A stretch of 64,000 nucleotides of DNA from an uncultured Planctomycetota bacterium (GCA_903902515.1 CAIUVD010000326.1:2350-66349); one strand, 5' to 3'. Positions 16,254 through 63,778 are shown, counted from the first letter of the stretch. Notes: a model not told the origin generated them from the letters alone. Numbers and translations are program-made.

Positions 16254-16344
16254 GGGGCGGGGAGTGTGGAGTCCGCCACCACATGCAAACGCCCACGGGT
16301 CGCGAGGACCCGTGGGCGTCACATCGGCATGATGCCAGGATACC

Positions 16345-16557
16345 TTACTTGGCGGCAGGAGCTGGAGCGGCAGCCGGAGCCGGAGCGGCGGCAGGAGCCG
16401 GGCACTTCGTGCAGCTGCTACCAGCGGCCTTGGTCTCCGCACAGCAGCCGGACTTGGTGGCACAGGATTTCTCGCCACAGGAGGCGCGATCAGCGCCACA
16501 TCCGGCCACCAGGATTACGGAGGCGGCGAGGAAGAGGGAGGAGAGGATCTTGGACAT
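16345..16557 (-). CDS. small cysteine-rich lipoprotein (70 aa) with Pro/Ala-repeat tail
   Basis: Signal peptide plus lipobox LVAGC; 7 Cys in the ~50-aa mature part (SCGEKSCATKSGCCAETKAAGSSCTKCP); AAGGAAG RBS 6 nt upstream of ATG. Confidence 0.5.
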   Translation of the reverse strand: MSKILSSLFLAASVILVAGCGADRASCGEKSCATKSGCCAETKAAGSSCTKCPAPAAAPAPAAAPAPAAK

Positions 16558-16615
16558 GGGAACTTCCTTTCAGGGAGTGGAAATTGTACGACGCCCGGGG
16601 CGCCGTGTTGGGTGG

Positions 16616-17494
16616 TTATTCTTCGTCGATCTCGACACCAATGTGCTCCGCCCCGAGGTGGATATGGTCGATCAGCCGCACGCCATCAACGAACACCGCC
16701 GCCGCCAGCACGCAGCCCGGCACGGCCTGGGTCACTTCGGCAAAACCACTCAAACGAATCACATCGCAGTAATCCAGTTCAACACCTTCATGAACCAGCA
16801 GTTCATTGGCGACCTTTTCAATCAGGTCCATGGCATTGCGTTCGCCATCCATGTAGGCCTTGTTGGCCAGCTCAAGGCCCCGGGGCAAGCCCAGGGCTTT
16901 TTCACGGGACTCCTTGGAAAGACGGCGGTTACGGCTGGACATGGCCAAGCCATCGGGCTCGCGCACGGTGCGGCCAACCTGGATATCCACCGGCAGATTG
17001 AGGTCATTAACCATTTTGCTGATGATCAGGACTTGTTGGAAATCCTTTTCACCAAACACAGCGATATCCGGCAGGACGGCGCCAAACAACTTGGTGACCA
17101 CCGTCGCCACGCCCCGGAAGTGACCGGGACGAGCCACCGCACACAATTTGTCGGTCAGGGGGCCAACGATCTCGATGAAGGTGGCGTAGCCATCGGGGTA
17201 CATGACCTCGTTGGTCGGCAGGAAGACGGCATCAACGCCTTCCTTGGCCAGCAGGGCCAGATCGGCCTCCAGGGTCTTGGGGTAGTTGGCCAAGTCCTCG
17301 GGATTATCAAACTGGGTCGGATTGACGTAAATACTGACCACCACCCGGGTCGCCGACTCCTTGGCCTGACGGATCAAGGACAGGTGGCCGTCATGGAGGG
17401 CGCCCATGGTCGGCACGAAGCCGATGACGGCCCCCTCCCGCTGCTGGGTGCGGCTCCAGGCGCGCATGTCCGTGATGGTGCTGAACTGCTGCAT
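16616..17494 (-). CDS. panC: pantoate--beta-alanine ligase
   Basis: PTMGALHDGHLSLI HIGH-type motif, conserved middle region (VFGEKDFQQ, MSSRNRRL); start trimmed to MQQFSTI. Confidence 0.93.
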   Translation of the reverse strand: MQQFSTITDMRAWSRTQQREGAVIGFVPTMGALHDGHLSLIRQAKESATRVVVSIYVNPTQFDNPEDLANYPKTLEADLALLAKEGVDAVFLPTNEVMYPDGYATFIEIVGPLTDKLCAVARPGHFRGVATVVTKLFGAVLPDIAVFGEKDFQQVLIISKMVNDLNLPVDIQVGRTVREPDGLAMSSRNRRLSKESREKALGLPRGLELANKAYMDGERNAMDLIEKVANELLVHEGVELDYCDVIRLSGFAEVTQAVPGCVLAAAVFVDGVRLIDHIHLGAEHIGVEIDEE

Positions 17495-17544: not shown

Positions 17545-18036
17545 ATGGCCTACCTGACCATCCGTATCAAGGGCGAGGAAGGGTACCGCCGCGTTCCCCT
17601 CGACAAGGACCGCATGGTCCTGGGTCGTTCCTCCGCCTGCGAACTCCTGATCCCCTCCACCGCCGTCTCCCGGGAGCACTGCGCCTTCGTCCGTGAGGGG
17701 GAGCAATGGCTGGTCGAGGACCTGGGCAGCTCCAACGGCACGCGCATCGGCGAGCGCAAGGTGGACGGCCGGGCACCCCTGGCTGAGAAGGATATGGTGA
17801 AGGCCGGCGTCGCCCGCTGCACCTTCCACCTTGGGCCCATCCCGAACGCGGACGAAGCCTCGGAACCCACCGAGGAAGCCGCCCCGACCCGGACTCGGGG
17901 CGCGGATGACCCACAGGATGCCATCCCCTGTTCGGACTGCGGCAAATGGATGTCCATCGCCCATCGCCTGCCGGGCGAACGCATGCCCTGCCCATTTTGT
18001 GACAAGCGCCAGACCGTCCCGACGTTGATCTCCTGA
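17545..18036 (+). CDS. FHA domain protein with C-terminal Cys4 zinc ribbon
   Basis: FHA core (MVLGRSSACELLIPSTAVSREHCAF...SSNGTRIG); C-terminal CSDCGKW...CPFCDK. Confidence 0.8.
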   Translation: MAYLTIRIKGEEGYRRVPLDKDRMVLGRSSACELLIPSTAVSREHCAFVREGEQWLVEDLGSSNGTRIGERKVDGRAPLAEKDMVKAGVARCTFHLGPIPNADEASEPTEEAAPTRTRGADDPQDAIPCSDCGKWMSIAHRLPGERMPCPFCDKRQTVPTLIS

Positions 18037-18046
18037 TCCTGAGATT

Positions 18047-19402
18047 GTGAACGGCCCCATGACTGACGTTCCCGCCCCCACCGCCCCCAAGCCCACGGCG
18101 CCCCCTCGGGCGATTCGGTGGTGGGGATTCCTGGTGATCTTCCTCCTCATCCTGGCCACGGCAGTCCTCGCCCCGTGGTGGCTGTCTTCCTTCCTTCGGG
18201 CCAAGATCGACACCGCCCTGGCCTCCCAGGGTTGGGAATTAGATCCCGCCCATCCCCTCTCCATCAGTATTTACGGAGCCCGGATTAGCGGCGAGGACCT
18301 GACTCTGCGGATGATCGCCGACCAGCGCGTCCTGATGCAGGCCAAACGTCTGTCCGCCGACGTGGCCGTCACGGAAAGCCTCCAGAAGCGCGACCTGGTG
18401 ATCGCCGAATTGGTGGCGGACGGCGTGGTCGGAAGCCTCCGGCGGGGCCCCGATGGCCGCCCGCCCCTGGTGGCGGAGGAGCCCGTTGCCCCCGGGGCCC
18501 CGCTCATCGACTGGAAAAAAGTCGACTGGAAGGCCAATTTCCAAAAGGGGATGGACCAGTACCAAGAATGGCAGGCCAAGCGTGAGGCCGACCTGAAGCT
18601 CCCCAAGGATCAGCCAGCCCCTCGCCCGGCCCCCGAAGCTGACATCGATTGGCCCCAAGCCGTCAAACACCAGCCCGCCCCCACCGTGGGTCGCCACATC
18701 CCGCGGGTGGTGGTCCGCAAACTGTCGATCACCGGCGGCAAGGTGCCGATGCCTGACGAAGGCCCCCTCGACATCGCCTCTTTCAGCCTCACGGGGTCTG
18801 ATGTGGCCCTCCGTCAAGACCAGGGCGAGGTCATGCTCCTGAAGGCGGAGATCACCACCGAAGGGGCCGGACCCATCACCCTGGATCTGACCCGGGAGCA
18901 AAGCGGCAACGGCCGCTTGAACTTCGCCGCCCCGACCATGCCCCTCCAGGCCCTGAGCTCACCCGCCATCGCTGGCGACAGCCTGGCCCCCTGGGGCCCG
19001 ACGGGCACCGCAGCCATCACCGGAGCCCAGACCTGGACCGGCTGGGCCCTCAACGGCACCGTCGAGGCCCAGGTCAGCGGCCTGGCCCTCCAACCGACTC
19101 CGGGAGCCCCCTCCGAGGCCAAAACCGCCGCCAAGGTGATTGCCGCCCTCAAGGGCAAACCGATCCGCTGGCCGGTGGTCATCGGGGGCACCCTGACGAG
19201 ACCGGAAATTGTCGACAGCGGCCTCAAGAAGGTGATGGAGGAAAACCAGGGGGTGTTGATCGAAGCCGCCAAGGAGGAAGCCAAAGACAAGGCCCTGGAA
19301 AAGGGCTCGCAGCTCATCGACAAGGAACTGAAAAAGCATCCCGAGGCTGAAAAAGCCAAGGACGCCGCCAAGGACGCCCTCAAGAACCTGTTGGGTCGCT
19401 GA
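18047..19402 (+). CDS. membrane-anchored hypothetical protein (possibly TIGR03545-like) with Lys/Glu-rich C-terminus
   Basis: N-terminal TM helix (WWGFLVIFLLILATAVLAPWWL); large extracytoplasmic body; immediately precedes a TIGR03546/DUF2062-like gene; family assignment from memory only. Confidence 0.45.
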   Translation: MNGPMTDVPAPTAPKPTAPPRAIRWWGFLVIFLLILATAVLAPWWLSSFLRAKIDTALASQGWELDPAHPLSISIYGARISGEDLTLRMIADQRVLMQAKRLSADVAVTESLQKRDLVIAELVADGVVGSLRRGPDGRPPLVAEEPVAPGAPLIDWKKVDWKANFQKGMDQYQEWQAKREADLKLPKDQPAPRPAPEADIDWPQAVKHQPAPTVGRHIPRVVVRKLSITGGKVPMPDEGPLDIASFSLTGSDVALRQDQGEVMLLKAEITTEGAGPITLDLTREQSGNGRLNFAAPTMPLQALSSPAIAGDSLAPWGPTGTAAITGAQTWTGWALNGTVEAQVSGLALQPTPGAPSEAKTAAKVIAALKGKPIRWPVVIGGTLTRPEIVDSGLKKVMEENQGVLIEAAKEEAKDKALEKGSQLIDKELKKHPEAEKAKDAAKDALKNLLGR

Positions 19403-19405
19403 ATC

Positions 19406-19939
19406 ATGTTCACCCTCTACAAACTGATCCGCAACCTGTTCAAGGCCCTGACCTCGGACGCGGCACCGTGGCAGATCTTCCTCGGCACCTTTTTCGGAAC
19501 CCTGCTTGGCTTCCTGCCGATCTTTCCCCTCTCCCAGGGCCCCTCACCCATCGCCCTGATCCTGATTGGCCTGGTTCTGGTCATCAACGTCCACCTCGGC
19601 TCGGTGTTCCTGTTCCTGGGTATCACCAAATTGCTGTCCCAGGTCCTCCACGGTCCGGCCCTGCTGGTCGGTGAGCAGTTCAGCGGCCTGGCCCAGACCT
19701 GCGCCGACATCCCATTCCTCCATTTGAGCCACTGGTCCCACACGGGGTACCTGGGCCTGACCCTGTTCGGCCTCGTCTGTGCGCCCTTGTTTGCCATCGT
19801 GATGTACCGCTTCTGCCTGTGGTTCCGCGTCACCTGGCGGGACAAACTGATGGAGAAGGCCCGCCTGCTGCGCGCTGGGTCGGTGGTCGACCACCCCTGG
19901 CTGGTACGGTTGGCCTGTTGGTTCTTTGGTATCGACTAA
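19406..19939 (+). CDS. DUF2062/TIGR03546-like small membrane protein
   Basis: PWQIFLGTFFGTLLGFLPIFP motif characteristic of DUF2062-related proteins; 4 predicted TM segments. Confidence 0.55.
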   Translation: MFTLYKLIRNLFKALTSDAAPWQIFLGTFFGTLLGFLPIFPLSQGPSPIALILIGLVLVINVHLGSVFLFLGITKLLSQVLHGPALLVGEQFSGLAQTCADIPFLHLSHWSHTGYLGLTLFGLVCAPLFAIVMYRFCLWFRVTWRDKLMEKARLLRAGSVVDHPWLVRLACWFFGID

Positions 19940-19941
19940 CC

Positions 19942-22902
19942 ATGCGCCTGCCCCTGACCACTTCCCTGCTGGCGTTAGCGACATGGGTCGGGGCCGCCGA
20001 AGGCCCCCTGCTGACCCGCCCGGGGAACGACCTGGCGGTCATCAACACGCCCCATCTGCGGGTGATCGTGCCGGCGGCTCAGGCTGAGGCCCTGGGGCCC
20101 CTGGCCCAACGGGCCGATACCCTCTACGCCCACCTCGCCCTGGAGGCGGGCTATACCATCACCCGACCCCTGACCCTGATCGTCAGTGATGATGCCGAGG
20201 ACCATAACGGCTTCTCGTCGGTCGTGCCTAACCGGATTGTCCAGGTGGAGTTGGCCTCGTCCCTGCCCCGCAGCGGGATTTTTACCGGCGTGGATGAAAC
20301 CGAGCGGACCCTGGTCCACGAGTTCGTCCATCATATCAGCAACGACCGTAATTACGGTTTTCGGGGCGTCCTCGAACGGATTTTCGGGCGCATCTACCCC
20401 GATGAGTTCCTGGGTCTCGGGGTGGCCTACCTCTCGGTCCCGGCCCATGTGACCATGCCATCCTTCTGGCACGAGGGCATCGCCCAGTGGGCCGAAACCG
20501 CCTATGCCGACCCGGCCTCACCCTGGGCCGGCCGGGGCCGGGATAGCCTGACCCACCTGGTGTGGCGCCTGGATGCCCAGGCCGGAGAGATCCCCTCGGC
20601 CGACGCCTGGCGGGCGACCTACCACCGCTGGCCCTACGGCAATCGCGTCTACCTCTACGGCCTGGCCTACACCCGTTACCTGGAAGCTGCCTACGGGAAG
20701 GCTCCCGGCCTGTGGTCCTTGATCGAGGAACAGGGCCGAGGTTGGGCCTTTGAGTTCGATGACGCTCCGCGCCGACTCACGGGTAAACCCCACGCCGTGA
20801 TGATCCAGGAAGCCCGGCAGGCCCTGTTAATCGAACAGCAGGGCCACCTGGCGACCTTGGGCTCTCGACCGCTCACCAGCCTGCAACGCCTGACCCCCCC
20901 AGAAACCCTGGTGGCCGCCCCGGCGTGGCTGCCCGGCGGCGGGCTGCTGGCGGCCTACCACGACATCTACGACATCCCCACCATGATCGTCCTGGAGCCC
21001 GATGGCACCCTGGTGGATCTGGATGTGATGGCCTGGGATCGTGGTGAAGCCCGCAGTGTGGGGGATGGGACGGCGGTGTGGGCGGAATCCCGGCACAGCA
21101 CCAATCCCTGGCGGCGAAGCCGCATCATGCTGCGCTATCCCGATGGCGCGATCCGCCACCTGGAAGGCGATCGCTGCCGTCAGCCCGACCTACGGCGGCA
21201 GGCCAACGGCCAGGTGGAGGTCACCGCCATTCGCCAGGGTCCCGCAGGTACCCAGGATCTGGTCGTGGGGGCCGTCGGCCAGGCCATCCTCGGTAAACTG
21301 CCGGTGGAATGGCGAACCGTTCCCAGCCAGGGCCGGGCGTGGAGCCCGGCTTTTCGCCCCGGATCCGAGGCGTTGTCCTGGGTCGAAACCGATGCCACGG
21401 GCAGCCGCCTGATCCTGGCCCCCCTCGCCGAGCCGACCAAACGTCAGGTGCTGGCCGAGGTCCGGGGACGCATCATCCATCCGGCGTGGAGCGCCGACGG
21501 CCAGCGGGTGTTCCTGTGCGCCGACCACACGGGGGTCCCCAACGCCTGGTATGTTGACGCCCAAGCCCCCGGAATCCTCAAGCCCGTGACCCACGTGGTG
21601 GGGGGCGTGGTGGCCTGCGTACCCTCCCCCGATGGCAAGGAGCTGGCGCTGGTCGCCTATGACCGCCAGGGCAATTTCCTGGCCCGGATCTCCAACGACC
21701 CCGCCCAATTCCCGACGGAAGTCCCGCGTATCGACCTCGCCTGGCCGGCACCGGTACCGGCGGTCGCCGTGCCCGGACCCGTTCCCCGACCCCTGACACC
21801 CCTGCCAGCCACCACCGGTACCGCACCCCCGGCCACGCCCTACCGGGGCCTCACGGAACTGGCCCCCCTGTTCTGGACCCCAACCACCCAGGTGACGCCG
21901 GTTGGCGGCCTGGGCGTGGTGGCGGTGGCTGCGGATCCTATCAATTCCCACCAGGTGATCGCCAGTCTCGGGGTCGGTGACCATGACCAGACCCTGGTCG
22001 GATCCGCCGCCTACCTGTGCGCCGCCTGGACCCTGGAAATTGGCGTCTTGGCGTGGCGGGATGAACGGACCTACGACAATCAACTCTACGATGGCGCCGG
22101 TAACGGCTACGACCTCGTCGACACCACGGAAAACGTCGAAATTCGGGCTGGTTATGGCCTCCTCGGGCGTCAGCGGCGTTTCCAGGCCTACCTCGCCCTG
22201 GGCCAGGCCCGGACCGAAGAAACCTCCGCCAGCCAGGACCGTCACCAGGGCCAGACCCTGTTTAACCGGCCCGCTTTTGCCGGCCGGGAAACCTACGTTG
22301 AGGGCACCCTGGCCTTCAGCAGCAACCTCCTGTTTCCCACCAGCTACACCCGCGAGGACGGCACCCTGGCGGCGGCCACGTGGCGCTCGAGTGGCTTTGG
22401 CGGGGACCTGGAAGGCCAGCGACTGGTCGCCCGGGCCGCCCACACCATCTCGGTCTGGCCCTCGGCCGGACATCAATTGGTGGTCGGCGGCCTGGTCGGC
22501 TGGACCAGCCAGGATGCAACCCGGACCCTCCAGGGTCGCTTCGCCGTGGGTCCGCCCAGCACCCTGGGCATTCCCCGGGGTTACCACGAAACCGCCGCCA
22601 TTGGCGATTACCTGCTGGGCTGGACCCTGGCCTACCGTTTGCCGGTATGGCGGCCCTTCCGGGGCCTAGGCACCACCCCCTTCGCCCTCCGCCAGGTGGT
22701 GGTCGAGGCTTTCCTTGATGGCGCCAAGGTGATGGCGGACTCCCTCGGTGATCGGGCCCCGTGGTACCGCTCGGCGGGTGGTGAACTGCATCTCGATACG
22801 GAAATCTGGGCCCTGCGCCTAGCCCCGGGCCTGGGGGTGGCCCGCCAACTGGACGGCCCCGAGGACACCGTGGCGTACCTGACCCTAGGATTCGCCTGGT
22901 GA
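19942..22902 (+). CDS. large outer-membrane protein: HExxH metalloprotease-like N-domain, PD40/TolB-like beta-propeller repeats, C-terminal beta-barrel
   Basis: Signal peptide MRLPLTTSLLALATWVGAAEG; LVHEFVHH zinc-binding-like motif; repeated AWSADGQRVF / PSPDGKELALVAY PD40-like units; C-terminus ...AYLTLGFAW (terminal aromatic typical of BAM substrates). Confidence 0.6.
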   Translation: MRLPLTTSLLALATWVGAAEGPLLTRPGNDLAVINTPHLRVIVPAAQAEALGPLAQRADTLYAHLALEAGYTITRPLTLIVSDDAEDHNGFSSVVPNRIVQVELASSLPRSGIFTGVDETERTLVHEFVHHISNDRNYGFRGVLERIFGRIYPDEFLGLGVAYLSVPAHVTMPSFWHEGIAQWAETAYADPASPWAGRGRDSLTHLVWRLDAQAGEIPSADAWRATYHRWPYGNRVYLYGLAYTRYLEAAYGKAPGLWSLIEEQGRGWAFEFDDAPRRLTGKPHAVMIQEARQALLIEQQGHLATLGSRPLTSLQRLTPPETLVAAPAWLPGGGLLAAYHDIYDIPTMIVLEPDGTLVDLDVMAWDRGEARSVGDGTAVWAESRHSTNPWRRSRIMLRYPDGAIRHLEGDRCRQPDLRRQANGQVEVTAIRQGPAGTQDLVVGAVGQAILGKLPVEWRTVPSQGRAWSPAFRPGSEALSWVETDATGSRLILAPLAEPTKRQVLAEVRGRIIHPAWSADGQRVFLCADHTGVPNAWYVDAQAPGILKPVTHVVGGVVACVPSPDGKELALVAYDRQGNFLARISNDPAQFPTEVPRIDLAWPAPVPAVAVPGPVPRPLTPLPATTGTAPPATPYRGLTELAPLFWTPTTQVTPVGGLGVVAVAADPINSHQVIASLGVGDHDQTLVGSAAYLCAAWTLEIGVLAWRDERTYDNQLYDGAGNGYDLVDTTENVEIRAGYGLLGRQRRFQAYLALGQARTEETSASQDRHQGQTLFNRPAFAGRETYVEGTLAFSSNLLFPTSYTREDGTLAAATWRSSGFGGDLEGQRLVARAAHTISVWPSAGHQLVVGGLVGWTSQDATRTLQGRFAVGPPSTLGIPRGYHETAAIGDYLLGWTLAYRLPVWRPFRGLGTTPFALRQVVVEAFLDGAKVMADSLGDRAPWYRSAGGELHLDTEIWALRLAPGLGVARQLDGPEDTVAYLTLGFAW

Positions 22903-23426
22903 ACACCCCCCTACGCCCCCAAAACCTCTGGTACCGCCGCTGGTGGCGGATCTCCGTGCACGCGGTGCGCGGCGTGACGCGGCTCCAAGACACCCCCCAT
23001 CGGATCGCCACCGGGGTCGCCTGCGGTCTCTTTTCCAGTGTGCTGCCGATTCTCGGCCAGACCGTGGTCGGCATCGTCCTCACCCGCCTCCTGCGGGGCA
23101 ACATCGTCGCCAGTCTGCCCTGGAGTTGGATCTCCAATCCCGTGACCTCCCCGCTCATTTTTTATGGGTGTTATCGCGTGGGAATCCTGCTTATCCCCGG
23201 CCAGGAAGTCCTGTCCTGGGTGCAAATGGAGGCCATGGTCACCAAATTCCAGGCCATGGGATTCCGTGAAGCCCTGGCCGAGGCTGCCGGGGTTTTTGCC
23301 GGGGCCGCCCTACCCCTGGGGCTGGGGAGTTTGCTGGTGGGAGCCATCGTCGGCGGCATCGGCTACGCCGGTGCCTGGGGGGTGGTCACCACCATCCAAC
23401 AGCGCCGAGCCCGCTCCACCGGGTGA
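22899..23426 (+). CDS. DUF2062 family membrane protein
   Basis: RIATGVACGLFSSVLPILGQTVVGIVL core; GTG start overlapping the preceding stop by 4 nt. Confidence 0.55.
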   Translation: MNTPLRPQNLWYRRWWRISVHAVRGVTRLQDTPHRIATGVACGLFSSVLPILGQTVVGIVLTRLLRGNIVASLPWSWISNPVTSPLIFYGCYRVGILLIPGQEVLSWVQMEAMVTKFQAMGFREALAEAAGVFAGAALPLGLGSLLVGAIVGGIGYAGAWGVVTTIQQRRARSTG

Positions 23427-23447
23427 AATCCTGGTGTAGACTGCTGC

Positions 23448-25067
23448 ATGCCGGATTCCGCCCTTCCTGACACCGTTCACGCTGTGGACCTGCTGCTGGG
23501 GGCGGAAAGCAGCCGAACCCTGCTCCGTCGGCTGGAAGACCTGCTGACCGCCGCCGAGGCCCTGCCCGCCCGGTTGTACCTCGCGGATATCCAGGGTGCG
23601 GTCTACTACATCGCCGCCGGTTTCGGCTGCTCTCGCGAGGGAGCGGACCTGCCCTTTGACCAACCCCGGACGCCCGGCCAGTTGGTGGTCACCAGCCAGG
23701 GCGAGCCCGTAGGCCTGCTGGAGGTCCCGGCCGCCGCCGCCCCGCGCCTCGAAGCCGTGGCCGGGATCCTGGGCCCCATCCTCGTCCAACGTCACCGCCA
23801 AGACCTGACGACCCACGACCTCCATCACGCCAAGGAACAAATCACCCACCTCCTGGCGGCCGGCGACCTTCTGCGCCACCTCGAAGTCGATACCCTGCTG
23901 GTGAAAATCCTGGAGACCGTTCTGACGGCCGTCCAAGCCCAGGTCGGCGCCGTCGTGGTTCCCGATGACCAGGGCCGACCCAAGGCCCGGGTCACCTGGG
24001 GTCTGCGCGAGGACCACCTCGCCCATATCAAACTGCGCGATGGCCGGTCCCTGGTGGCGGCAACCATGGAAGACGGCCAGACCCGTTGCCTGGATGAGCA
24101 GACCATTCAGCACGACCTCGATCTGACGGGCCTGACCGCCCATCTCACGGGCCTGATGACCCTGCCCTTGACCAGCCGCGGCGCGGTTCGGGGTGCGGTG
24201 ATCCTCGGCAACCCCCAGGAGGCCTTCACCCCGGCCACCAGCCGGATGGCCGAGACGGTCTGCGCCCTGGCCGCCATCGCCCTCGACAACGCTCTGCTGG
24301 TCAAGGCGATGGTCGAAAGCGAACGTCTGAAACAGGAGATGGAACTGGCCCGGGGCGTGCAGGCCGGCTTGTTTCCGGCCAAGGGCCTGCGCACCGGCCC
24401 CCTGGTGATCGAAGGAGCGAGCCGCTCGTGCAGTGAAACCGGCGGCGACTACTACACCTTCGGCGACCGGGGCCGGGACGTGGTGATGATGATCGGTGAC
24501 GTCTCGGGCCACGGCCTGGGGGCCGCCCTGTTCACGTTCATGGCCCACGTCCTCGGCAAACGCCTGTTCCGGGCCAGCATCGACCTGGATCACTGCTTCC
24601 GCCTCCTGAATGAGGAACTCTCCGACTACCAGAGCGGCCGGTTCATGACCGCCGCTCTGGTCGAAATCGACCCGAAAACTTTGGAATTTACCTACGTCAG
24701 CGCCGGTCACAACCCGCTGCTGTGGATCCACGAGGGCAAGGCGGTGTGGCTCGAAAGTTGTGGTTTCCCCCTCGGGATCATGTCGGAAGGCGAATGGCCC
24801 CCCAGCGCGTCCAAAACCCTTTCACCCGGCGACGTGCTGATCCTCTACACGGATGGCTTCAGCGAGGCGGTGGATCCCTCCGGCGAGATCTACACCGAGG
24901 AGCGGCTGGCGGCGGCCGCCATCGCCGCCTGGGAAAAAGGCCTCACTCCGACGGAAATGTTGGTCTCCCTCAACGCCGAGGCCGATACGTGGACCCAGGG
25001 AGCGCCCCACACGGATGACCTGACGATGGTGATCGCCAAGGTCGGCCCTCTGCCTGTCAGCGCCTGA
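23448..25067 (+). CDS. GAF-domain PP2C-type Ser/Thr phosphatase (SpoIIE/RsbU family)
   Basis: Two GAF-like regions, then PPM motifs GGDYYTF, MMIGDVSGHGLGAAL, YTDGFSEA, DDLTMV. Confidence 0.85.
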   Translation: MPDSALPDTVHAVDLLLGAESSRTLLRRLEDLLTAAEALPARLYLADIQGAVYYIAAGFGCSREGADLPFDQPRTPGQLVVTSQGEPVGLLEVPAAAAPRLEAVAGILGPILVQRHRQDLTTHDLHHAKEQITHLLAAGDLLRHLEVDTLLVKILETVLTAVQAQVGAVVVPDDQGRPKARVTWGLREDHLAHIKLRDGRSLVAATMEDGQTRCLDEQTIQHDLDLTGLTAHLTGLMTLPLTSRGAVRGAVILGNPQEAFTPATSRMAETVCALAAIALDNALLVKAMVESERLKQEMELARGVQAGLFPAKGLRTGPLVIEGASRSCSETGGDYYTFGDRGRDVVMMIGDVSGHGLGAALFTFMAHVLGKRLFRASIDLDHCFRLLNEELSDYQSGRFMTAALVEIDPKTLEFTYVSAGHNPLLWIHEGKAVWLESCGFPLGIMSEGEWPPSASKTLSPGDVLILYTDGFSEAVDPSGEIYTEERLAAAAIAAWEKGLTPTEMLVSLNAEADTWTQGAPHTDDLTMVIAKVGPLPVSA

Positions 25068-25101
25068 TCGTCGACGGATTGACGGCTTTCGCGGCGGACA
25101 G

Positions 25102-27849
25102 TTGGATCTAATGTCGGCACCCATGATCGCCCTGCGCCACCTGTCGCCCCTGCTTTTGACCCTGGCCCTGTGGTCGGCCAAGGAGCCGCTGCCGTTCCCG
25201 GAGATGGCACCAACCATCGGGACCCTGCTCCAGCGCAATTATTACGATCACCAGCGCTTCCAACCCCGGCTGATGGTGGAACGGGCCCTGCGGTCCCTGG
25301 AACGCGCGGAAATCACCATTGAAGCCCAGTGGAAGGATGGCGTCATCCGCATCCGTCACGAGAACGACCAGCGCACCATCCAGGCCCCGGACCCCCGGTC
25401 CCTGGAAGAAGCCATGATCTTGATTGAGGCCGTGCGCGGCGAACTCGACCGCACGCCCCTGACCAACACCCGCAAGCGTGAACTGACCTACGCCATGCTC
25501 AACGGAGCCCTGGCGACCCTCGATCCCCACACCGTTCTGATGCCCCCGGAGCCAGCCCAAAACTTCAGCGAGGATGTGGCGGGCGAATTCTTCGGCATCG
25601 GCGCCTACCTGGCCCAGAATGAGGGCATCATCTCCATCGAACGGGTCATGCCGGGTCTACCGGCCGAACGGGCCGGCATCGAGGACGGCGATGTCATTCT
25701 CGCCGTCGATGGAGAACGGACCGCCGGCCTGTCCCTGCATCAGGCCGTCAAGCGCATCAAGGGCCCCAAGGGCACCACCGTCTCGCTGACCCTCCACCGC
25801 AAGGGCATGCCCCAACCCATCGTCATCGCCGTGGTCCGCGACCTCGTGCAAGTGGTGACCATGCGGGCGTGGCGCCGCGACAGCATCGGCTATGTGCGGA
25901 TGGATGAGTTCAACGCCAACACCGCCCGGGATCTGGCCACCGCCCTCCTCGAATTGGAGCGCAGTGGCCCCCTGAGCGCCTTTGTCCTCGACCTGCGCTT
26001 CAACCCCGGCGGTCTCCTCGACCAGGCCAAACTGATCAGCGACTTCTTCCTGCCGGCCGGCAAGGAAATCGTCCGCACCGTGACCGTCGACGGCGACCCG
26101 CACATCACCTCCTCGTCACGCCAGACCCTGCTCGACGTGCCGATGGCCGTCATCACCTCGGGGGGAAGCGCCAGCGCGGCGGAAATCCTGTCGGGCTGTC
26201 TCCAGCTCAACGACCGGGCGGTAGTCCTCGGGACCACCACCTTCGGCAAGGGTTCGGTTCAGACCGTACGCCCCCTGCGGGACAACAGCCGCCTGAAACT
26301 CACCATCCAGGAATATCAGCTCCCCGGTGGCGTCTCGATCCAGGACGTGGGCGTAACCCCCGATGTGCGCCTGGTTCGGCACATCGTCGACAAGGATGGC
26401 AGCGTTGACCTCCTGCCCTTCAGCCCTCACCGGGAACACGACGAGGAATTCGCCCTCGCCAACCGCAAAGCCTACGCCCACCAGGCCACGGCCACCATCG
26501 GCTGGCTAGCCCATTACCGCAACAAGGACGAGCTGAAGGTCCATGGCATTGCGTCCCGTAGTTTCTCTCCTGACCAGGAGGCGATGCTGGTTCTCGACCT
26601 GATGGCCGCCGCCGCCAGCCAAGCCGACTTCGCCACGACCGGCCAGGCCGCGGTCAAATCCGGCCAGGGCCGCCGTTTCCTCCTTGATCGCCTGACCGCC
26701 CCCCTGCGGGAGCGGCAAGCCCGCGAGTCCGCCGCGCTGACCGAAGCCCTGGCCAAGCAGCCCCAGCCCATCACCTGGGGCCCGGAAACGGCCGTCGACG
26801 GCCTCCAGGTGTCGTTCGCCGGACCGGCCCAGATCCAGGCCGGCACCGATGCCGACCTGCGTTTCACCATCACCAACCCGTCCGACGTCCCGGCCGGTCG
26901 GATCTTCGGGATGATCGAGGCCGACATCGCTTCGCCCCTGTGGGAGGACGAACTCGTCGTCGGGGCGGTGCCGGCCCGCGGCACCGTCGAGGCCCGGCTG
27001 CACTTCCGCGTCCCCCCCCGGCTCTACGCCGGCGAGGAGCGATTCACCCTGGTCCTGCGCCATGATGGCCAAGAAGCCCCCCTCGCCCGCCTGCCCATCA
27101 GCCTGACGGTCGTGCCCCAGGAACGGCCCCATTTCGCCATTTCGTGGTCCATGACCCCGACGATCCTCAAGCCCGGCGAGCCCGCCTCCCTCGGTCTGCA
27201 GGTCCTGAACGATGGTTCCGGTACCTCGGCCCCCCTGAAGCTGCGGGTCTTCAAGTTGGACGATGCGTTCGTTCAATTGCTCGAAACCGAGCTGCCCTTC
27301 CCCAAGGGCCTGGCCCCCGGCTCGACCGCTCCCCCGGTGTCCGTGCCCCTCACGATTGCCGAGCAAGTCCGGGGCACGCCTTTCGCCGCCCATGAAATCC
27401 GCCTCCAACTGAGTCTGGCCGAGGATTTCGAAGATATCGATGATGAATCGCGAACCGATGGTCGCTACCGCTCGGGATTCGGCACCACCCTGACGATTCC
27501 GGTCGGCCAAGCCATCGCTCCCCGGTCCCTGGTGCCTCCGCGCCTGGCGACACGGGAGGTCAAGGTCGATGGAGGCATCGCCCACATCCGGATTCGCCTC
27601 GACGACGACAATCCCCGCTGGCTCACGATCCTCCGCAATGAGGACAAGATCGACCTCCGCAGCGTCACCGCCTCGGGGGAGTTCACCTTTGATGTGCCCT
27701 TGGAACCCGGCATCAACAGCGTCCAGGTGGTGGCGGTCGACGCCGACACCCTGGAACAGGGCATCCCCCTGCGGATCTGGGGCGCGGGCGAGAAGCCGAC
27801 CACCAAGCCCGCCGCCAAGGCGCCCCCGGGCAACGAGGTGCTGCCCTGA
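25102..27849 (+). CDS. S41 family C-terminal processing peptidase with PDZ domain and ~480-aa C-terminal extension
   Basis: PDZ (GIISIERVMPGLPAERAGIEDGDVILAVDG), S41 motifs LDLRFNPGG, ITSGGSASAAEI, TTFGKGSVQT; alternative start M8. Confidence 0.8.
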   Translation: MDLMSAPMIALRHLSPLLLTLALWSAKEPLPFPEMAPTIGTLLQRNYYDHQRFQPRLMVERALRSLERAEITIEAQWKDGVIRIRHENDQRTIQAPDPRSLEEAMILIEAVRGELDRTPLTNTRKRELTYAMLNGALATLDPHTVLMPPEPAQNFSEDVAGEFFGIGAYLAQNEGIISIERVMPGLPAERAGIEDGDVILAVDGERTAGLSLHQAVKRIKGPKGTTVSLTLHRKGMPQPIVIAVVRDLVQVVTMRAWRRDSIGYVRMDEFNANTARDLATALLELERSGPLSAFVLDLRFNPGGLLDQAKLISDFFLPAGKEIVRTVTVDGDPHITSSSRQTLLDVPMAVITSGGSASAAEILSGCLQLNDRAVVLGTTTFGKGSVQTVRPLRDNSRLKLTIQEYQLPGGVSIQDVGVTPDVRLVRHIVDKDGSVDLLPFSPHREHDEEFALANRKAYAHQATATIGWLAHYRNKDELKVHGIASRSFSPDQEAMLVLDLMAAAASQADFATTGQAAVKSGQGRRFLLDRLTAPLRERQARESAALTEALAKQPQPITWGPETAVDGLQVSFAGPAQIQAGTDADLRFTITNPSDVPAGRIFGMIEADIASPLWEDELVVGAVPARGTVEARLHFRVPPRLYAGEERFTLVLRHDGQEAPLARLPISLTVVPQERPHFAISWSMTPTILKPGEPASLGLQVLNDGSGTSAPLKLRVFKLDDAFVQLLETELPFPKGLAPGSTAPPVSVPLTIAEQVRGTPFAAHEIRLQLSLAEDFEDIDDESRTDGRYRSGFGTTLTIPVGQAIAPRSLVPPRLATREVKVDGGIAHIRIRLDDDNPRWLTILRNEDKIDLRSVTASGEFTFDVPLEPGINSVQVVAVDADTLEQGIPLRIWGAGEKPTTKPAAKAPPGNEVLP

Positions 27850-27855
27850 TGGGGG

Positions 27856-28914
27856 TCAGACCCGCTGCTGAACGCGCTTGGTCGGAGCCGGATTCCACCA
27901 CGCATCGATGCTCGACATGATGCGATCCCGCAGCAGGTAGGCGAGGACCAGGAAGATCACCAGACTGACCCCCACCAGCAGCCACCGCAGGGGTTCTGGC
28001 AACCCCGGGCCAGACGAGGACGGGCTGGCCCGGCGGGCTTTCAGGCCAGCGACGCAGGCCAAATCTTCTTCGAGGTCATTGAGGGTCTGATAACGGCGCT
28101 GGGGATTCTTTTTCAGGCAGCGTTGGATGACGGCGAGCATCTGCGGATCCATACGCGGGAAGCGTGGCTCCTCCTCGCAATGCATCTTCAACAAAACATA
28201 GGGATCCGTCGAGGTGAAGGGCGTGTCGCCGGTGACCATCTCGTACAGGATGATCCCGAGACTGTAGATATCCGACCGCTCGGTAACGTCCTTGGTATTC
28301 TGACACTGCTCGGGGCTCATGTAGAGCGGCGTGCCCATGATCTGGCCAGTCATGGTCAGTTTGGTGCGCTTCACGTCGAACAGTTTGGCCAGGCCGAAAT
28401 CGGCGACCTTGACCACCAGACCCTTGCGGATGTTGCCGATGATGAACCCACCCCGACCGTCCCCGGGACGGGTCAGGAGGAGGTTTTCTGGCTTGAGATC
28501 CCGATGAACGGTGGCCGCCTCCCGCAACCCCCGCAAGACCATGATCGCCACCCAGGCGGCCTCGGCCACGGGCAGGGACTTCCGCTTATCAAGCAGGTCC
28601 CGCAGGCTGCCCCCCGCCATGTGCTCCATGGCCACATAGGGGAACTGGTGATGCTGGCCGGTGGAACGGTACCCGACCACATGGTGACTGTTGCGAGCCT
28701 TGCGCAAAACCTCGCGCTCACGCTCAAAACGCGGGAGATCGCTGGCATTCTCCAAAACCTTAATGGCCACCAATTCTTCAGGATTCGACAGGAGCTGGCA
28801 GCGGAACACGCTGCCGCAACCACCCTCCCCGAGTTTCTTCACCACCCGGTATTTGCCGTCGATGATGTCACCCTGATTGACCCGTAACTTCAATTCCAGG
28901 GGCTGGGCGGGCAT
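27856..28914 (-). CDS. Ser/Thr protein kinase (Hanks-type) with C-terminal TM anchor
   Basis: GEGGCGSVF, AIK, HRDLKPENLLL, DFGLAK, SPEQ, DIYSLG motifs; ORF 27856..29676 trimmed to MPAQPLELK because the N-extension overlaps divergent folC. Confidence 0.85.
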   Translation of the reverse strand: MPAQPLELKLRVNQGDIIDGKYRVVKKLGEGGCGSVFRCQLLSNPEELVAIKVLENASDLPRFEREREVLRKARNSHHVVGYRSTGQHHQFPYVAMEHMAGGSLRDLLDKRKSLPVAEAAWVAIMVLRGLREAATVHRDLKPENLLLTRPGDGRGGFIIGNIRKGLVVKVADFGLAKLFDVKRTKLTMTGQIMGTPLYMSPEQCQNTKDVTERSDIYSLGIILYEMVTGDTPFTSTDPYVLLKMHCEEEPRFPRMDPQMLAVIQRCLKKNPQRRYQTLNDLEEDLACVAGLKARRASPSSSGPGLPEPLRWLLVGVSLVIFLVLAYLLRDRIMSSIDAWWNPAPTKRVQQRV

Positions 28915-29005: not shown

Positions 29006-30199
29006 ATGGTTTCACCGCCGACCCTCGACGGCCTCCTGGCGTGGCTGGATGCCGCCCCCAACCGGGAGCGCACCGGCAATTTCGCCGGCCTGCACACCCA
29101 GGCCATGGGCCGGGTCCTGGCCCACCTGCCAACACCCCCGGCCCCGGTGACCATCGCCGGGACCAAAGGTAAAGGCAGCACCCTGCACCTCATCGAGGCG
29201 GGCTTGGCCGCCCTGGGCCGGTCGACCACGGCCTTCACCAGCCCCCATGTCCGTTCCGTGGCCGAACGCTGGCGCCTCGATGGCAGGGAAGCCACCCCGG
29301 AGGATCTGCAGGACGCCCAGGCCACCGCCATGGCCGCTGAGGTCGCCGCCGGATGCCCCCTGTCGTGGTTTGAACGCTCCCTGGCCCTGGCCGTAATCCT
29401 GGCCAGCCGCCGACCCTCGGCGGTGTTTCTGGCCGAGGTCGGAATCGGCGGACGCCAGGATGCGGTGAACGCCCTCGACGCCGGAATCGCCGTGGTCACC
29501 CACCTGTCCCACGACCACCGGGATGTCCTGGGGCCGACCCTCGACCACATCGCCCACCAAAAATTGGGCATCGCCCGAGCGGGATACCCCCTGGTCATCG
29601 CTCCCCAAAGCCCCGAGGCCGCCGCGGCCATCAACCGGCGGCTGTCGGCGGGGGATGCCGACGGTGCGCTGATCATGGACGTCGGGCGCGGTCCAGCCCT
29701 CGACCTCGGCCTCCCCGGCGATCACCAGCAAGATAACGCCGCCACCGCTTTGGCGGTCCTCACGCTCCTCGCCCCAGGAGCCGACCTCGGGCCGGTCAAA
29801 GCCGCCTGGCGGGACCTCCACCTGCCGGCCCGTTGCCAACGGGTCCACCACCGGGGCCGGTCCCTGCTGGTCGATGGAGCCCACAATGGTCCGAGTATCG
29901 CCGCCACCCTCCAGGTCGCCCACCAGGACTTTTCCCAGGGTTTCACGCTGCTTCTAGCCCTGGCCCGGGACAAGGAGGTTGAGGAAATTCTGGCCACCCT
30001 CCCCGCCGGCCTGGGCGTCGTCCGTTGTGGCTACGCCAGCCCCCGGGCCCGTCAGGAAGCCGATTGGCCCCCCGAAGCTCGGGCGTGGCCGTGGTACGCC
30101 ACGGTGGCTGAGGCCCTGGCCGCCGTGCCCGGCCCCCTCTGCATCACCGGCAGTTTCTACCTGGCGGCCGAGGCCCTGGCGACCCTGGAGAGCCCCTAA
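29006..30199 (+). CDS. folC: bifunctional folylpolyglutamate synthase / dihydrofolate synthase
   Basis: Mur-ligase P-loop TIAGTKGKGST, HxxH-type THLSHDH, DGAHN. Confidence 0.85.
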   Translation: MVSPPTLDGLLAWLDAAPNRERTGNFAGLHTQAMGRVLAHLPTPPAPVTIAGTKGKGSTLHLIEAGLAALGRSTTAFTSPHVRSVAERWRLDGREATPEDLQDAQATAMAAEVAAGCPLSWFERSLALAVILASRRPSAVFLAEVGIGGRQDAVNALDAGIAVVTHLSHDHRDVLGPTLDHIAHQKLGIARAGYPLVIAPQSPEAAAAINRRLSAGDADGALIMDVGRGPALDLGLPGDHQQDNAATALAVLTLLAPGADLGPVKAAWRDLHLPARCQRVHHRGRSLLVDGAHNGPSIAATLQVAHQDFSQGFTLLLALARDKEVEEILATLPAGLGVVRCGYASPRARQEADWPPEARAWPWYATVAEALAAVPGPLCITGSFYLAAEALATLESP

Positions 30200-30717
30200 A
30201 ACCCCACCACCGCCGCGATCGCGACGCCGTGGGTCGCCACGCCATGGAGGCGGTCGCTGAGGAAGCCGGCGGCCTCGAACCCGACGCGGGTGCCATGGAC
30301 CGGGGGTTTCCACGGCAGGGTGGCCCCGATGACACCCTTGACGGTCGGCCGGAGGGAGGCGGCAACCCAGGTCGGTTGGCGGATGCGGATCACGCTGAGA
30401 CCCGCGCCGAGGCCCGCGTAAACGCCCCCGGAAATCGGCTGGCGCTCGATGTAGGCCGCGGTCAGGGCATCGAAGCGGTCGGCCCCGGCAGCCGTCGAGC
30501 GCCAATCGATATCCCCACCCATCCTCCCGAGGATCCCCCGCTGGGGCAGGATGACCCCGCCACCCAGGTACAGGCCCTGTTCGCCGACCAGGGTGCGCAC
30601 CTGCTCGTTGCCAAAAGTCAGGCCTGCCCGCAGGGCCCAGGGGCCGGGAATCCCGCCCTCGGCGGACCACAGGAGGGCGCTGACCCCGACCAGGGCGAAC
30701 CAACGGCAGCCCTTCAT
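30196..30717 (-). CDS. small outer-membrane beta-barrel protein (OmpA-like barrel / OMP_b-brl)
   Basis: Signal peptide MKGCRWFALVGVSALLWSA; 8-strand pattern; C-terminal IAAVVGF. Confidence 0.5.
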   Translation of the reverse strand: MKGCRWFALVGVSALLWSAEGGIPGPWALRAGLTFGNEQVRTLVGEQGLYLGGGVILPQRGILGRMGGDIDWRSTAAGADRFDALTAAYIERQPISGGVYAGLGAGLSVIRIRQPTWVAASLRPTVKGVIGATLPWKPPVHGTRVGFEAAGFLSDRLHGVATHGVAIAAVVGF

Positions 30718-51596: not shown

Positions 51597-51977
51597 GGAG
51601 TTTCCTTTTGAGGTCATCCAGAGGAGGCAGGCAGCGCCGGAAGGCACATCTACTTTACTTGAATCAGTTGCATCATTCCATGCCTACCGTGGAAATCCCC
51701 TATCCATTTTGGAATGCGCCGTTGATCGCCCACCAGGGGGCCATGCAAATCGGCCCTCCTCCTGGCTCAATGGCGCGAACATCTGGTGATCAATACAAGA
51801 TAGGTCCATAGAACGACCAACGTGCGCAAACGCATCCGTGGTAAAACGGATCACCATCACCGAGCCACCTGACCAACTCCCGAGAACCCGAACGCACCTC
51901 CACGACGCGATACGAACGATTTCCAACGCACGCCGAGCCTTCCCGCCTCGTAAGCCGCCGTATGCTGCCACGCCCCC

Positions 51978-59486: not shown

Positions 59487-59489
59487 ACC

Positions 59490-62240: not shown

Positions 62241-62247
62241 TCCGGCC

Positions 62248-63777: not shown

Positions 63778-63778
63778 C

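Follow-up and report, generated by a model that had tools for sequence, protein, structure and literature searches.

Diderm bacteria depend centrally on AsmA-like proteins and on Omp85 barrels for building their outer membrane. The two meet in the TAM, an Omp85 plus AsmA-like pair (PMC11014939), and the DUF748 family is related both to the DUF490 domain of TamB and to AsmA (PMC4494059). POTRA-less Omp85 subfamilies have also been recognised (PMC4104836), and in the functionally uncharacterised WD40-Omp85 proteins a TolB-like propeller lies N-terminal to a POTRA-less Omp85 barrel (PMC4104836, Heinz & Lithgow 2014). The enzymatic N-terminal domain of another Omp85 protein, PlpD, is periplasmic (PMC11116518). 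Small AsmA-like families (TIGR03545/DUF748), the roles of TIGR03546/DUF2062 partners and the regulation of all these are poorly understood.

The window analysed here, that is, the whole stretch of 64,000 nt from an uncultured Planctomycetota bacterium (GCA_903902515.1 CAIUVD010000326.1:2350-66349), carries at 17,545-28,914 an array of seven ORFs on the + strand and one on the - strand (g1 to g8). ORF calling recovered all eight genes that the initial annotation had placed there, in agreement with the public calls for this contig (g2 447 aa, g3 177, g4 986, g5 175, g6 539). Most of the earlier domain calls also held in Pfam/NCBIfam searches (FHA plus zinc ribbon, DUF2062, GAF-PP2C, PDZ-S41, Hanks kinase), as did the tight packing of the + strand genes, which are separated by gaps of 2-34 nt or overlap: g1-g2 10-22 nt, g2-g3 3 nt, g3-g4 2 nt, g4/g5 a 4-nt overlap, g5-g6 21 nt and g6-g7 34 nt. 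The 4-nt overlaps thought to flank g4 on both sides were found on the g5 side, but on the g3 side there is a 2-nt gap between the TAA stop of g3 (19937-19939) and the ATG of g4 at 19942. The kinase gene g8, described as divergent from the array, is convergent with g7, the two stop codons being 6 nt apart, and is divergent from folC only. A scan of the array with consensus promoters and terminators gave no signal above the shuffled expectation. A folP-cdaA-ruvB block lies near the array within the window (30196-33306).

The first gene, g1 (17545..18036, +; 163 aa), encodes an FHA domain followed by a C-terminal CxxC...CPxC zinc ribbon, as had been proposed. The protein matches PF00498 at 55.8 bits (Pfam cut-off 20.7) and, having the GR, SxxH and NG residues, belongs to the FHA family; the pThr-binding residues GR, SREH and NGT and the four zinc-ribbon Cys are kept in 24 orthologues. 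Its best NCBIfam match is FhaB/FipA (60 bits, under the cut-off of 125), and with no predicted TM segment it was assigned to the cytoplasm.

The ORF of g2 opens at GTG 18047 (451 aa), and ATG 18059 (MTD...) is the start used in orthologues and public calls (18059..19402, +). As annotated, the product is a single-pass protein of ~450 aa, held by a single TM anchor near its N-terminus, as in TamB/AsmA (residues ~28-46 in the 451-aa ORF), and with a short periplasmic part of about 400 residues. HMM searches with the window protein gave no Pfam, TIGR03545 or DUF490/TamB match. Weak collinear TIGR03545 matches were found in 5 of the 11 orthologues (12-51 bits, best E 1e-13, cut-off 173.35), aligning profile positions 1-129 and 299-552, with ~170 central positions apparently missing; among the same 11, two matched DUF748 and one YhdP. 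By score, g2 thus falls outside TIGR03545. By context, g2 has traits of this family, which is encoded beside a TIGR03546 gene: it adjoins a TIGR03546-like gene in all informative loci and has an N-terminal anchor. In place of the TIGR03545-like label, g2 appears to be an inner-membrane-anchored periplasmic protein only remotely related to TIGR03545/DUF748/YhdP in the AsmA superfamily, an assignment drawn from weak HMM matches of 12-51 bits.

The small polytopic inner-membrane protein g3 (19406..19939, +; 177 aa) has three hydrophobic segments and resembles the TIGR03546 family: its alignment takes in profile positions 1-145 of 154 and scores 65 bits, against a cut-off of 79.45; many of its orthologues (45-59% identity) carry the JGI label TIGR03546 family. 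The proposal that g3 and g5 are DUF2062 paralogues could not be demonstrated. BLASTP similarity between them was not significant, hhalign gave a probability of 3.8% (E 0.011), and the DUF2062 (PF09835) gathering score of 27.4 was reached by g5 only, g3 scoring 14.4 bits.

Among about 80 related loci from uncultured Planctomycetota relatives, FHA-g2-g3 was nearly always intact, and its genes are often coupled in translation. The g2 and g3 genes adjoin wherever the sequence permits a check, and the FHA gene is directly 5' of them in about 26 loci, with overlapping stop and start codons in some. In roughly 20 loci, g4 follows g3 on the same strand, mostly within 120 nt (two at 156 and 406 nt); g4 identity among these loci ranges over 45-71%, and FHA and panC are missing from two. 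Only within a single clade of the g4 tree does g4 lie behind the core, and g4 is absent from about half of the g3 loci having enough downstream sequence. It occurs without g2/g3 in 37-38 other loci, and also in distant phyla such as Ca. Lernaellota; its distant relatives have unrelated neighbouring genes, and in sister lineages it adjoins the folP-cdaA-ruvB block. The stable unit is FHA-g2-g3; g4 follows it in one sub-lineage only, which is consistent with a single ancestral juxtaposition, and is probably co-transcribed there with the upstream cassette. The initial annotation had named a lack of conserved co-occurrence as what would refute it; the eight-gene set is not conserved, but the four-gene core is. 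Judged by gene order, the region looks like a mosaic operon-like array rather than one fixed module.

The product of g4 (19942..22902, +; 986 aa) starts with a signal peptide, behind which come a gluzincin domain of thermolysin/M1-like type (residues ~22-318; 20005..20895, +), a TolB/PD40-like beta-propeller (~320-585; 20899..21696, +), a Pro-rich linker and a 16-strand Omp85-superfamily barrel (~641-986; 21862..22899, +). The tripartite peptidase-propeller-barrel architecture is fixed in 66/66 long relatives, and the family spans several hundred metagenomic proteins from more than one phylum. The earlier description of a ~990-aa outer-membrane protein with an HExxH motif and a PD40 propeller was borne out, with HExxH at residues 126-130 (20317-20331, +) and a weak PD40/TolB match in profile searches. 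HExxH is invariant in 114 homologues, and the domain keeps an invariant HExxH/E signature, with E178 or E185 as candidate third zinc ligand; the motif, the downstream Glu and the thermolysin-like alpha/beta fold place the domain among the gluzincins (clan MA(E); M1/M30/thermolysin-like), and the peptidase looks catalytically intact. Peptidase family M1 was considered and rejected on three counts. Its HExxH-x18-E spacing is lacking, as G149 stands 19 positions after H130; the conserved upstream strand has HNGFS in place of the exopeptidase motif GxMEN; and Pfam gives no Peptidase_M1 match. The domain is therefore only fold-related to M1.

The initial annotation, which called g4 an outer-membrane protease, missed that it is an Omp85-family barrel. 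Omp85 proteins are marked by (V/I)RG(Y/F) in loop L6, which joins strands 11 and 12, and by (F/G)xDxG in strand 13. Both motifs are recognisable in the C-terminal domain of g4, an Omp85-like 16-stranded transmembrane beta-barrel. The long loop 856-889 contains P-R-G-Y (residues 878-881; 22573-22584, +), with P878 kept in 107/114 sequences, R879 and G880 each in 109/114 and Y881 in 114/114; strand 13 reads E922-x-F-x-D (E922 114/114, F924 105/114, D926 105/114), the final G not being conserved across the 114 sequences. The C-terminal residue is aromatic. No POTRA domain was found in g4: the model contains no beta-alpha-alpha-beta-beta unit, and the Pro-rich linker directly precedes strand 1. 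Although g4 does not reach the gathering score of PF01103 (Omp85), its barrel profile finds a distant relative, P0276 (E 4.8e-41), which scores 26.3 against PF01103 (cut-off 24); another relative, P0362, has a weak precomputed Omp85 match, and g4 relatives carry PD40 and Omp85 Pfam matches. As modelled, g4 is a POTRA-less Omp85-superfamily outer-membrane protein, and this makes a role of the locus in the biogenesis or upkeep of the outer membrane more likely than a proteolysis pathway.

The reading that we tentatively favour, while rating it slightly less than even, is that an AsmA-like/TIGR03546 inner-membrane pair is controlled by the FHA protein and co-transcribed with an Omp85-type partner, to which proteases and a phosphatase have been added in a lineage-specific manner. 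The set FHA-g2-g3-g4 may be a regulated outer-membrane-building unit. In this model, g3 would be the obligate small polytopic partner of g2, and together they would form an inner-membrane AsmA-like device handling lipid or outer-membrane components. The device would pair with the Omp85-type g4, loosely as TamB does with TamA, and the peptidase and propeller of g4 would be periplasmic and would process outer-membrane-located substrates. As a cytoplasmic phospho-threonine reader, g1 would recognise a pThr in a cytoplasmic part of g2 or g3, or on an in-trans kinase, and so place the device under Ser/Thr phosphorylation. In loci that have them, the GAF-PP2C and S41 proteins could bring extra regulatory or proteolytic layers. 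The analysis itself establishes which genes are present, their domains and folds, and how they are conserved; we infer the interactions, substrate, topology and phosphorylation target given here for g1-g4.

The alternative that best withstands the data, though we consider it unlikely, is that no functional link extends past g2-g3, with or without FHA: g4 would be an independent, widely conserved housekeeping outer-membrane protein and g5-g7 unrelated envelope or signalling genes, all sharing a direction after a lineage-specific rearrangement. Indeed, most loci with a g4-family gene, and those in other phyla, have it on its own, g2-g3 are found without g4, and the adjacency, because it maps to a single g4 clade, may be one inherited rearrangement rather than the product of repeated selection. 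Moreover, the folP-cdaA-ruvB genes that lie beside g4 in sister lineages are still near it in the window, which suggests that the position of g4 is ancestral and that the cassette moved in. However, 2-nt gaps or overlapping stop and start codons are kept down to ~45% g4 identity and in two upstream contexts, all partners are envelope-located, the pairing of AsmA-like and Omp85 proteins has a precedent in TAM, and it is at this locus specifically that g5, g6 and g7 turn up again.

The behaviour of these downstream genes bears on the model of the initial annotation, in which all eight genes form one phospho-regulated envelope-proteolysis or sorting pathway, with a dedicated kinase as writer, FHA as reader and GAF-PP2C as eraser in control of two proteases and the membrane proteins. 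The g5 gene (22899..23426, +; 175 aa) encodes a DUF2062 small membrane protein (PF09835, 101.6 bits, above the gathering score of 27.4); the gene begins with GTG and shares 4 nt with the stop-codon end of g4. The predicted GAF-PP2C of g6 (23448..25067, +; 539 aa) was confirmed as a cytoplasmic protein with a GAF domain (GAF_2, 45 bits) and a SpoIIE/RsbU-type PP2C phosphatase domain (PF07228, 147.9 bits). The long PDZ-S41 protease was likewise found in g7 (25102..27849, +; 915 aa), a secreted serine protease of the C-terminal-processing type (PF03572 Peptidase_S41, 153 bits) that exceeds the TIGR00225 prc cut-off (277 bits against 218.6). Assignment of g7 to the long S41 family of MXAN_5808 was rejected, since TIGR03900 was matched at 420.8 bits over profile positions 16-719 of 973 (cut-off 660.95); it is related to that family only. 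The three genes are accessory and recur only at the 3' end of FHA-g2-g3-g4, in several combinations. The g5 gene is present in L004, L060 and L083 and absent from L059, L014 and L061; g6 follows g4 in L059 and L014 or g5 in L004/L083, and is absent from L060, L061, L006, L013 and L055; g7 is present after g4 or g6 in L059, L014 and L061/62 only. Among close relatives, L059 and L014 have g6 and g7 without g5, L060 has g5 only, L061 has g7 only, and L006, L013, L015 and L055 have none of the three.

At the end of the array, g8 (27856..28914, -; 352 aa) encodes a Hanks-type Ser/Thr kinase (PF00069 Pkinase, 154.6 bits) with a single C-terminal TM (residues 309-327), which agrees with the membrane-anchored kinase first proposed. 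No g8 orthologue was found at the matching position in syntenic loci of relatives, and none of the kinases near g4 in other loci is its orthologue. Related loci carry a Hanks kinase in about every 66 kb, so that one abutting the array is unremarkable; g8 is probably an incidental neighbour outside the unit. The eight-gene pathway, which we consider improbable and which synteny refutes in part, does account for the close packing of the seven + strand genes with a kinase abutting their 3' end, for the presence of all three signalling domain types and for the recurrence of g6 and g7 here in some relatives. Against it, the kinase is convergent and never syntenic, close relatives can do without any one of g5, g6 and g7, and g4 is of Omp85 type and more than a protease. 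Furthermore, the PP2C is found in part of the clade and belongs to the SpoIIE/RsbU family (PF07228), whose usual targets are the pSer substrates of partner switching and not those of Hanks kinases. The claim of a complete writer, reader and eraser toolkit was overstated on this ground. In a dedicated STK/PP2C/FHA module, as in the T6SS threonine-phosphorylation pathway, all three would be conserved with the machine they control, and here the FHA gene alone is conserved. For the core, the data support the general idea of an envelope system tied to an FHA protein; the kinase is not conserved, and g5-g7 come and go.

An even-stranded barrel leaves its N-terminus periplasmic by default, and g4 is without POTRA and has no evident cleavage site or surface signal. 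We give the least credence, very little in all, to g4 being a type-V(d)-like self-exporter unrelated to the cassette, whose barrel would move the peptidase and propeller to the surface for extracellular protein degradation or nutrient acquisition. In its favour, the catalytic residues are invariant, and the enzymatic N-terminal passenger, Pro-rich linker and Omp85 barrel follow the layout first proposed for PlpD (PMC4104836); against it, the enzymatic domain of PlpD was shown to stay periplasmic (PMC11116518).

Returning to the FHA-controlled pair with its Omp85-type partner, the conserved association of an FHA phospho-reader gene with those of an AsmA-like/TIGR03546 pair suggests a regulatory input, and g4 is a candidate outer-membrane partner of that pair. 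It also offers a well-modelled, undescribed Omp85 architecture with a peptidase and a propeller and no POTRA. A more far-reaching proposal, which we hold to be doubtful, is that gluzincin-propeller-Omp85 proteins form an Omp85 subfamily of their own, spread over several phyla, with an active zinc peptidase and a propeller where POTRA would be, and that in this lineage they partner the FHA-gated AsmA-like/TIGR03546 pair as a phospho-regulated, protease-equipped TAM analogue. If the links of FHA and g4 with the pair are real, Planctomycetota would offer a natural TAM-like variant that has its own proteolysis and is under Ser/Thr control; otherwise, the g4 family still widens the catalogue of Omp85 scaffolds reused for enzymes, as in PlpD.

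Compared with the TIGR03545/TIGR03546 pair, the locus has the same order of a large single-pass and a small polytopic protein, always adjacent, with a near end-to-end match for g3 and collinear matches for g2 orthologues; it differs in that window g2 and g3 both fall under the curated cut-offs and g2 apparently is without ~170 central positions. To our knowledge, an FHA gene in front and an Omp85 gene behind lie outside the definitions of these families. The locus resembles TAM in that a gene for an inner-membrane signal-anchored AsmA-superfamily protein stands beside one for a 16-strand Omp85-family barrel, both acting in the envelope (PMC4494059, PMC11014939). In contrast to TamA, whose POTRA contact TamB, g4 has a gluzincin peptidase and a propeller and no POTRA; g2 is ~450 aa and TIGR03545/DUF748-like, whereas TamB has ~1,260 aa with DUF490; and here there are an extra TIGR03546 partner and an FHA gene, and adjacency is facultative. 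A true TAM (TamA with three POTRA, in a physical complex with a TamB that has a C-terminal DUF490) was excluded, there being no POTRA in g4 and no DUF490 in g2, so that the likeness would be one of working only.

As in the WD40-Omp85 proteins, the propeller of g4 precedes a POTRA-less barrel, and g4 relatives have PD40 and Omp85 matches; the description in PMC4104836 includes no gluzincin HExxH domain, which is present in 66/66 long members of the g4 family. PlpD, the patatin-Omp85 protein of Pseudomonas aeruginosa, shares with g4 an N-terminal enzyme fused to an Omp85 barrel, and its periplasmic topology is assumed for g4; PlpD is a lipase with one POTRA and no propeller, whereas g4 is a metallopeptidase with a propeller and no POTRA. 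The T6SS PpkA/PppA/Fha1 and mycobacterial FhaA/FhaB-PknB systems likewise place an FHA gene with an envelope machine, PP2C and Hanks kinase nearby, but here the FHA gene is conserved without the kinase and the SpoIIE-type phosphatase, and the locus is without T6SS or peptidoglycan-synthesis genes. Finally, BepA (an M48 protease at BAM), Prc-NlpI and CtpA-LbcA (S41 proteases with outer-membrane partners) are conceptual analogues of the g4 peptidase and g7, as periplasmic proteases at the outer membrane.

The initial annotation described eight consecutive genes, g1 to g8, as one phospho-regulated envelope-proteolysis module. Between panC (16616 to ~17494, - strand) and folC (29006-30199, + strand), we found eight ORFs, of which seven share one direction and the eighth is on the other strand, and public gene calls on an ENA contig encoding an identical g4 protein (ERZ18634931) gave the same gene model (g2 447 aa, g3 177 aa, g4 986 aa, g5 175 aa, g6 539 aa). 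The domains proposed for g1, g5, g6 and g7 were all recovered: g1 (17545-18036, +) is an FHA protein (Pfam, 55.8 bits) whose pThr-binding residues (GR, SREH and NGT) and C-terminal CxxC...CPxC zinc ribbon are kept in 24 orthologues; g5 (22899-23426, +) is a DUF2062 protein (Pfam, 101.6 bits); g6 (23448-25067, +) combines GAF with a SpoIIE-type PP2C domain (Pfam, 147.9 bits); and g7 (25102-27849, +) combines PDZ with Peptidase_S41 (Pfam/NCBIfam), scoring 277 bits against TIGR00225, above the cut-off, and 421 bits against TIGR03900/MXAN_5808, below the cut-off of 661. The g8 product (27856-28914, -) is a membrane-anchored Hanks-type kinase as described (154.6 bits, one C-terminal TM helix), but its gene is convergent with the array rather than divergent, the g7 and g8 stop codons being 6 nt apart. 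Likewise, a 4-nt overlap had been reported on both sides of g4; only g4/g5 has one, and the g3/g4 junction (TAA cc ATG) leaves a 2-nt gap. The proposal that g3 and g5 are paralogues bracketing g4 was dropped, as BLASTP was not significant, hhalign gave a probability of 3.8% and g3 scored only 14 bits on DUF2062. Scanning for promoter and terminator consensus sequences gave counts no different from those in shuffles. The G+C content of the window is 64-70%, and long antisense "shadow" ORFs are numerous, such as those of 925 aa opposite uvrD (13995-16772, +) and 465 aa opposite g4; these are typical of high-GC DNA and are not genes.

The eight-gene set is not conserved in relatives. Loci drawn from genomes around homologues of g4 (55) and from metagenomes around those of g3 (15) were compared, together with contigs looked up individually (12 look-ups), all scored by tblastn and iterated profiles. 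Solid conservation was found for the cassette made up of the FHA, TIGR03545-like and TIGR03546-like genes (g1-g3): g2 and g3 were adjacent wherever the sequence permits a check, and the FHA gene, absent in L065 and L078/79, lay directly upstream of them in ~26 loci, with overlapping stop and start codons in some. The g4 gene was found directly 3' of g3 in ~20 loci, the gap mostly staying within 120 nt but reaching 156 and 406 nt in two of them, and it lay 5 kb from g3 in L066. Of the g4 loci whose upstream sequence was long enough, 37-38 lacked g2/g3, and g4 was missing from 5 of ~10 informative g3 loci (L063, L065, L070, L072 and L080). In a neighbour-joining tree of g4, all g3-adjacent cases fell into one clade together with a few non-adjacent members, a placement consistent with one ancestral g3-g4 juxtaposition followed by losses. 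Because adjacency is restricted to that clade, co-inheritance could also account for it; this would be in line with a functional link limited to g1-g3, with none beyond, which we regard as a credible if rather unlikely alternative.

Downstream of g4, gene content varied among close relatives. The window and L083 carry g5-g6(-g7), L004 carries g5-g6, L059 (71% identity) and L014 carry g6-g7 without g5, L060 has g5 only, L061/62 have g7 only, and L006, L013, L015 and L055 have none of the three. The g5, g6 and g7 genes are optional additions, a loose accessory set. With this variation, and with no kinase at the g8 position in any relative examined, the integrated eight-gene module proposed initially is improbable. 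Hanks kinases occur at a density of ~1 per 66 kb in related loci, and those near g4 in other lineages belong to a different orthogroup from g8. A conserved g4-kinase link, considered for L002, L020 and the L023-L038 group, was rejected: the kinases are not g8 orthologues, their architectures differ and kinase density is high. In another Planctomycetota lineage (L023, L025, L026, L027, L030, L031 and L038), a Ser/Thr kinase orthogroup with a conserved C-terminal "ADGWRRFAEQF" motif, again not orthologous to g8, lies downstream of the g4 homologue at a distance of ~0.7 kb, on the - strand and convergent to it, with a gene for a 220-300-aa unknown protein in between.

The g3 protein scored 65 bits over almost the whole TIGR03546 profile (cut-off 79), and many of its orthologues of 45-59% identity are labelled as TIGR03546 family by JGI. 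Family searches with g2 of the window gave no match beyond a weak one to GspN (E 0.002); among its orthologues, 5 of 11 matched TIGR03545 (best E 1e-13) collinearly, with N-terminal parts at profile positions 1-129 and C-terminal parts at 299-552. DUF748 was matched by two of the 11 and YhdP by one. DUF748 is related to AsmA and to the DUF490 of TamB, the AsmA-like subunit of TAM, the translocation and assembly module (PMC4494059), and, like TamB and AsmA, g2 is anchored by one N-terminal TM segment. On the basis of these weak HMM matches, the DUF748 kinship and the anchor, we read g2 as a putative short, divergent AsmA-superfamily protein; g2-g3 would be a remote TIGR03545/TIGR03546 pair. A PDB sequence-profile search with the g2 family returned nothing significant, and no function for the TIGR03545/TIGR03546 pair was found in the literature searched. 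The idea of a phospho-acceptor Thr within the N-terminal tail of g2 was discarded, since just Thr2 of "MT(D/E)" is semi-conserved, which is not convincing.

The AlphaFold model of g4, built from a 114-sequence alignment (pLDDT 93.9, pTM 0.93), begins with a signal peptide (residues 1-20), followed by an alpha/beta domain (30-306), a TolB-like beta-propeller (320-585), a Pro-rich linker and a 16-strand barrel (641-985). A P-R-G-Y motif in the long loop that joins strands 11 and 12, kept in 107-114 of the 114 sequences, and E-x-F-x-D in strand 13 are what we take to be the Omp85 L6 (V/I)RG(Y/F) and strand-13 (F/G)xDxG hallmarks. The model contains no POTRA domain and g4 gave no match to Pfam Omp85; a distant relative (P0276), retrieved with a barrel-only profile at E 4.8e-41, passes the Pfam Omp85 threshold (26.3 vs 24). 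The g4 protein belongs to the Omp85 family; its earlier description as an outer-membrane protease with HExxH and a PD40 propeller was correct for both of these features but missed the nature of the barrel. Modelled separately (pLDDT 83), the N-terminal domain is a gluzincin, and the invariance of H126, E127, H130, E178 and E185 in 114/114 sequences argues for an active enzyme. Assignment to M1 was rejected (no Pfam match, no GxMEN motif, wrong Glu spacing), and a PDB sequence-profile search with the domain gave nothing significant. To gauge how widespread the architecture is, a barrel-only HMM was run against 1.84 billion representatives, yielding 433 proteins; among the listed matches of at least 900 aa, the N-domain was present in 66 of 66 and HExxH stood at the same place in 64. 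One family member belongs to Ca. Alcyoniella australis of the phylum Lernaellota, and one homologue locus is binned as Desulfobacteraceae. The constant N-domain of the long matches and the spread to other phyla point to a tripartite gluzincin-propeller-barrel architecture that is old and fixed. Heinz & Lithgow described a POTRA-less, uncharacterised "WD40-Omp85" cluster with a TolB-like propeller (PMC4104836); a gluzincin ahead of the propeller is mentioned neither there nor in the other literature searched, and the complete architecture is well supported and apparently undescribed. The presence of the F3 and Tricorn_N/2nd Pfam families among the matches prompted the idea of a Tricorn-like cascade (S41 plus an M1-type factor) joining g7 and g4, which was abandoned as g4-g7 linkage is not conserved.

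In sister clades, g4 follows folP-cdaA-x-x-ruvB; in L016, L017, L018, L020 and L034, folP (Pterin_bind), cdaA (DAC) and genes for 340-aa and 191-aa unknown proteins lie directly upstream of ruvB-g4. The folP-cdaA block of the window (30196-33306, -) lies on the strand opposite to g4, ~7 kb downstream of it, and this displacement suggests that an inversion or insertion brought the FHA-g2-g3 cassette beside g4. In the window clade, uvrD (13920-16499, -) flanks panC upstream of the cassette, and in L082 (5995-10895) a UvrD-type helicase gene and a distant g4 homologue share 4 nt at the start of the latter; the proximity of uvrD in both contexts may be coincidence. Elsewhere in the window, the sole low-GC stretch (50007-51647, -; 55% vs ~65%) specifies a 546-aa product that is secreted or lipoprotein-like and contains repeats of the right-handed beta-helix type (NNRSRNNQDGGGFDLD...); horizontal acquisition is possible, and no tandem repeats were found near 50-52 kb. 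A type I-E-like CRISPR-Cas gene set occupies 54834-64000 (+), with Cas3 (HD + helicase, 54834-57461), a 511-aa ORF lacking a Pfam match (57461-58996), Cas5 (60680-61441), a Cas6e/CasE-type "CRISPR_assoc" protein (61434-62240), Cas1 (62905-63777) and a short Cas2-like ORF that starts at 63779 and runs past the window end, all on the + strand; no CRISPR array was seen within the 64 kb.

The locus resolves into a conserved cassette, an apparently undescribed gluzincin-propeller-Omp85 architecture and loose accessory genes; the original observation is partly confirmed and its interpretation partly supported. Our preferred reading, plausible but tentative, is that g2-g3 would form an AsmA-like device of the envelope, with g1 coupling its activity or assembly to Ser/Thr phosphorylation; in the window lineage, this device would be co-expressed with the Omp85-type g4 and possibly dock to it. 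The FHA reader g1 and, in some genomes, the GAF-PP2C g6 would be cytoplasmic, g2 and g3, with or without g5, would lie in the inner membrane, and g4, with or without the S41 protease g7, would occupy the periplasm and outer membrane. A barrel with an even number of strands has its N-terminus in the periplasm. The enzymatic domain of PlpD, the patatin-Omp85 of Pseudomonas aeruginosa, is periplasmic (PMC11116518), and on these two grounds the peptidase and propeller of g4 are predicted to face the periplasm, making a surface-displayed peptidase very improbable. For a g1-coupled g2-g3 device acting with g4, the closest working analogy is TAM, in which the inner-membrane-anchored, AsmA-like TamB works with the Omp85 protein TamA (PMC11014939, PMC12800296).
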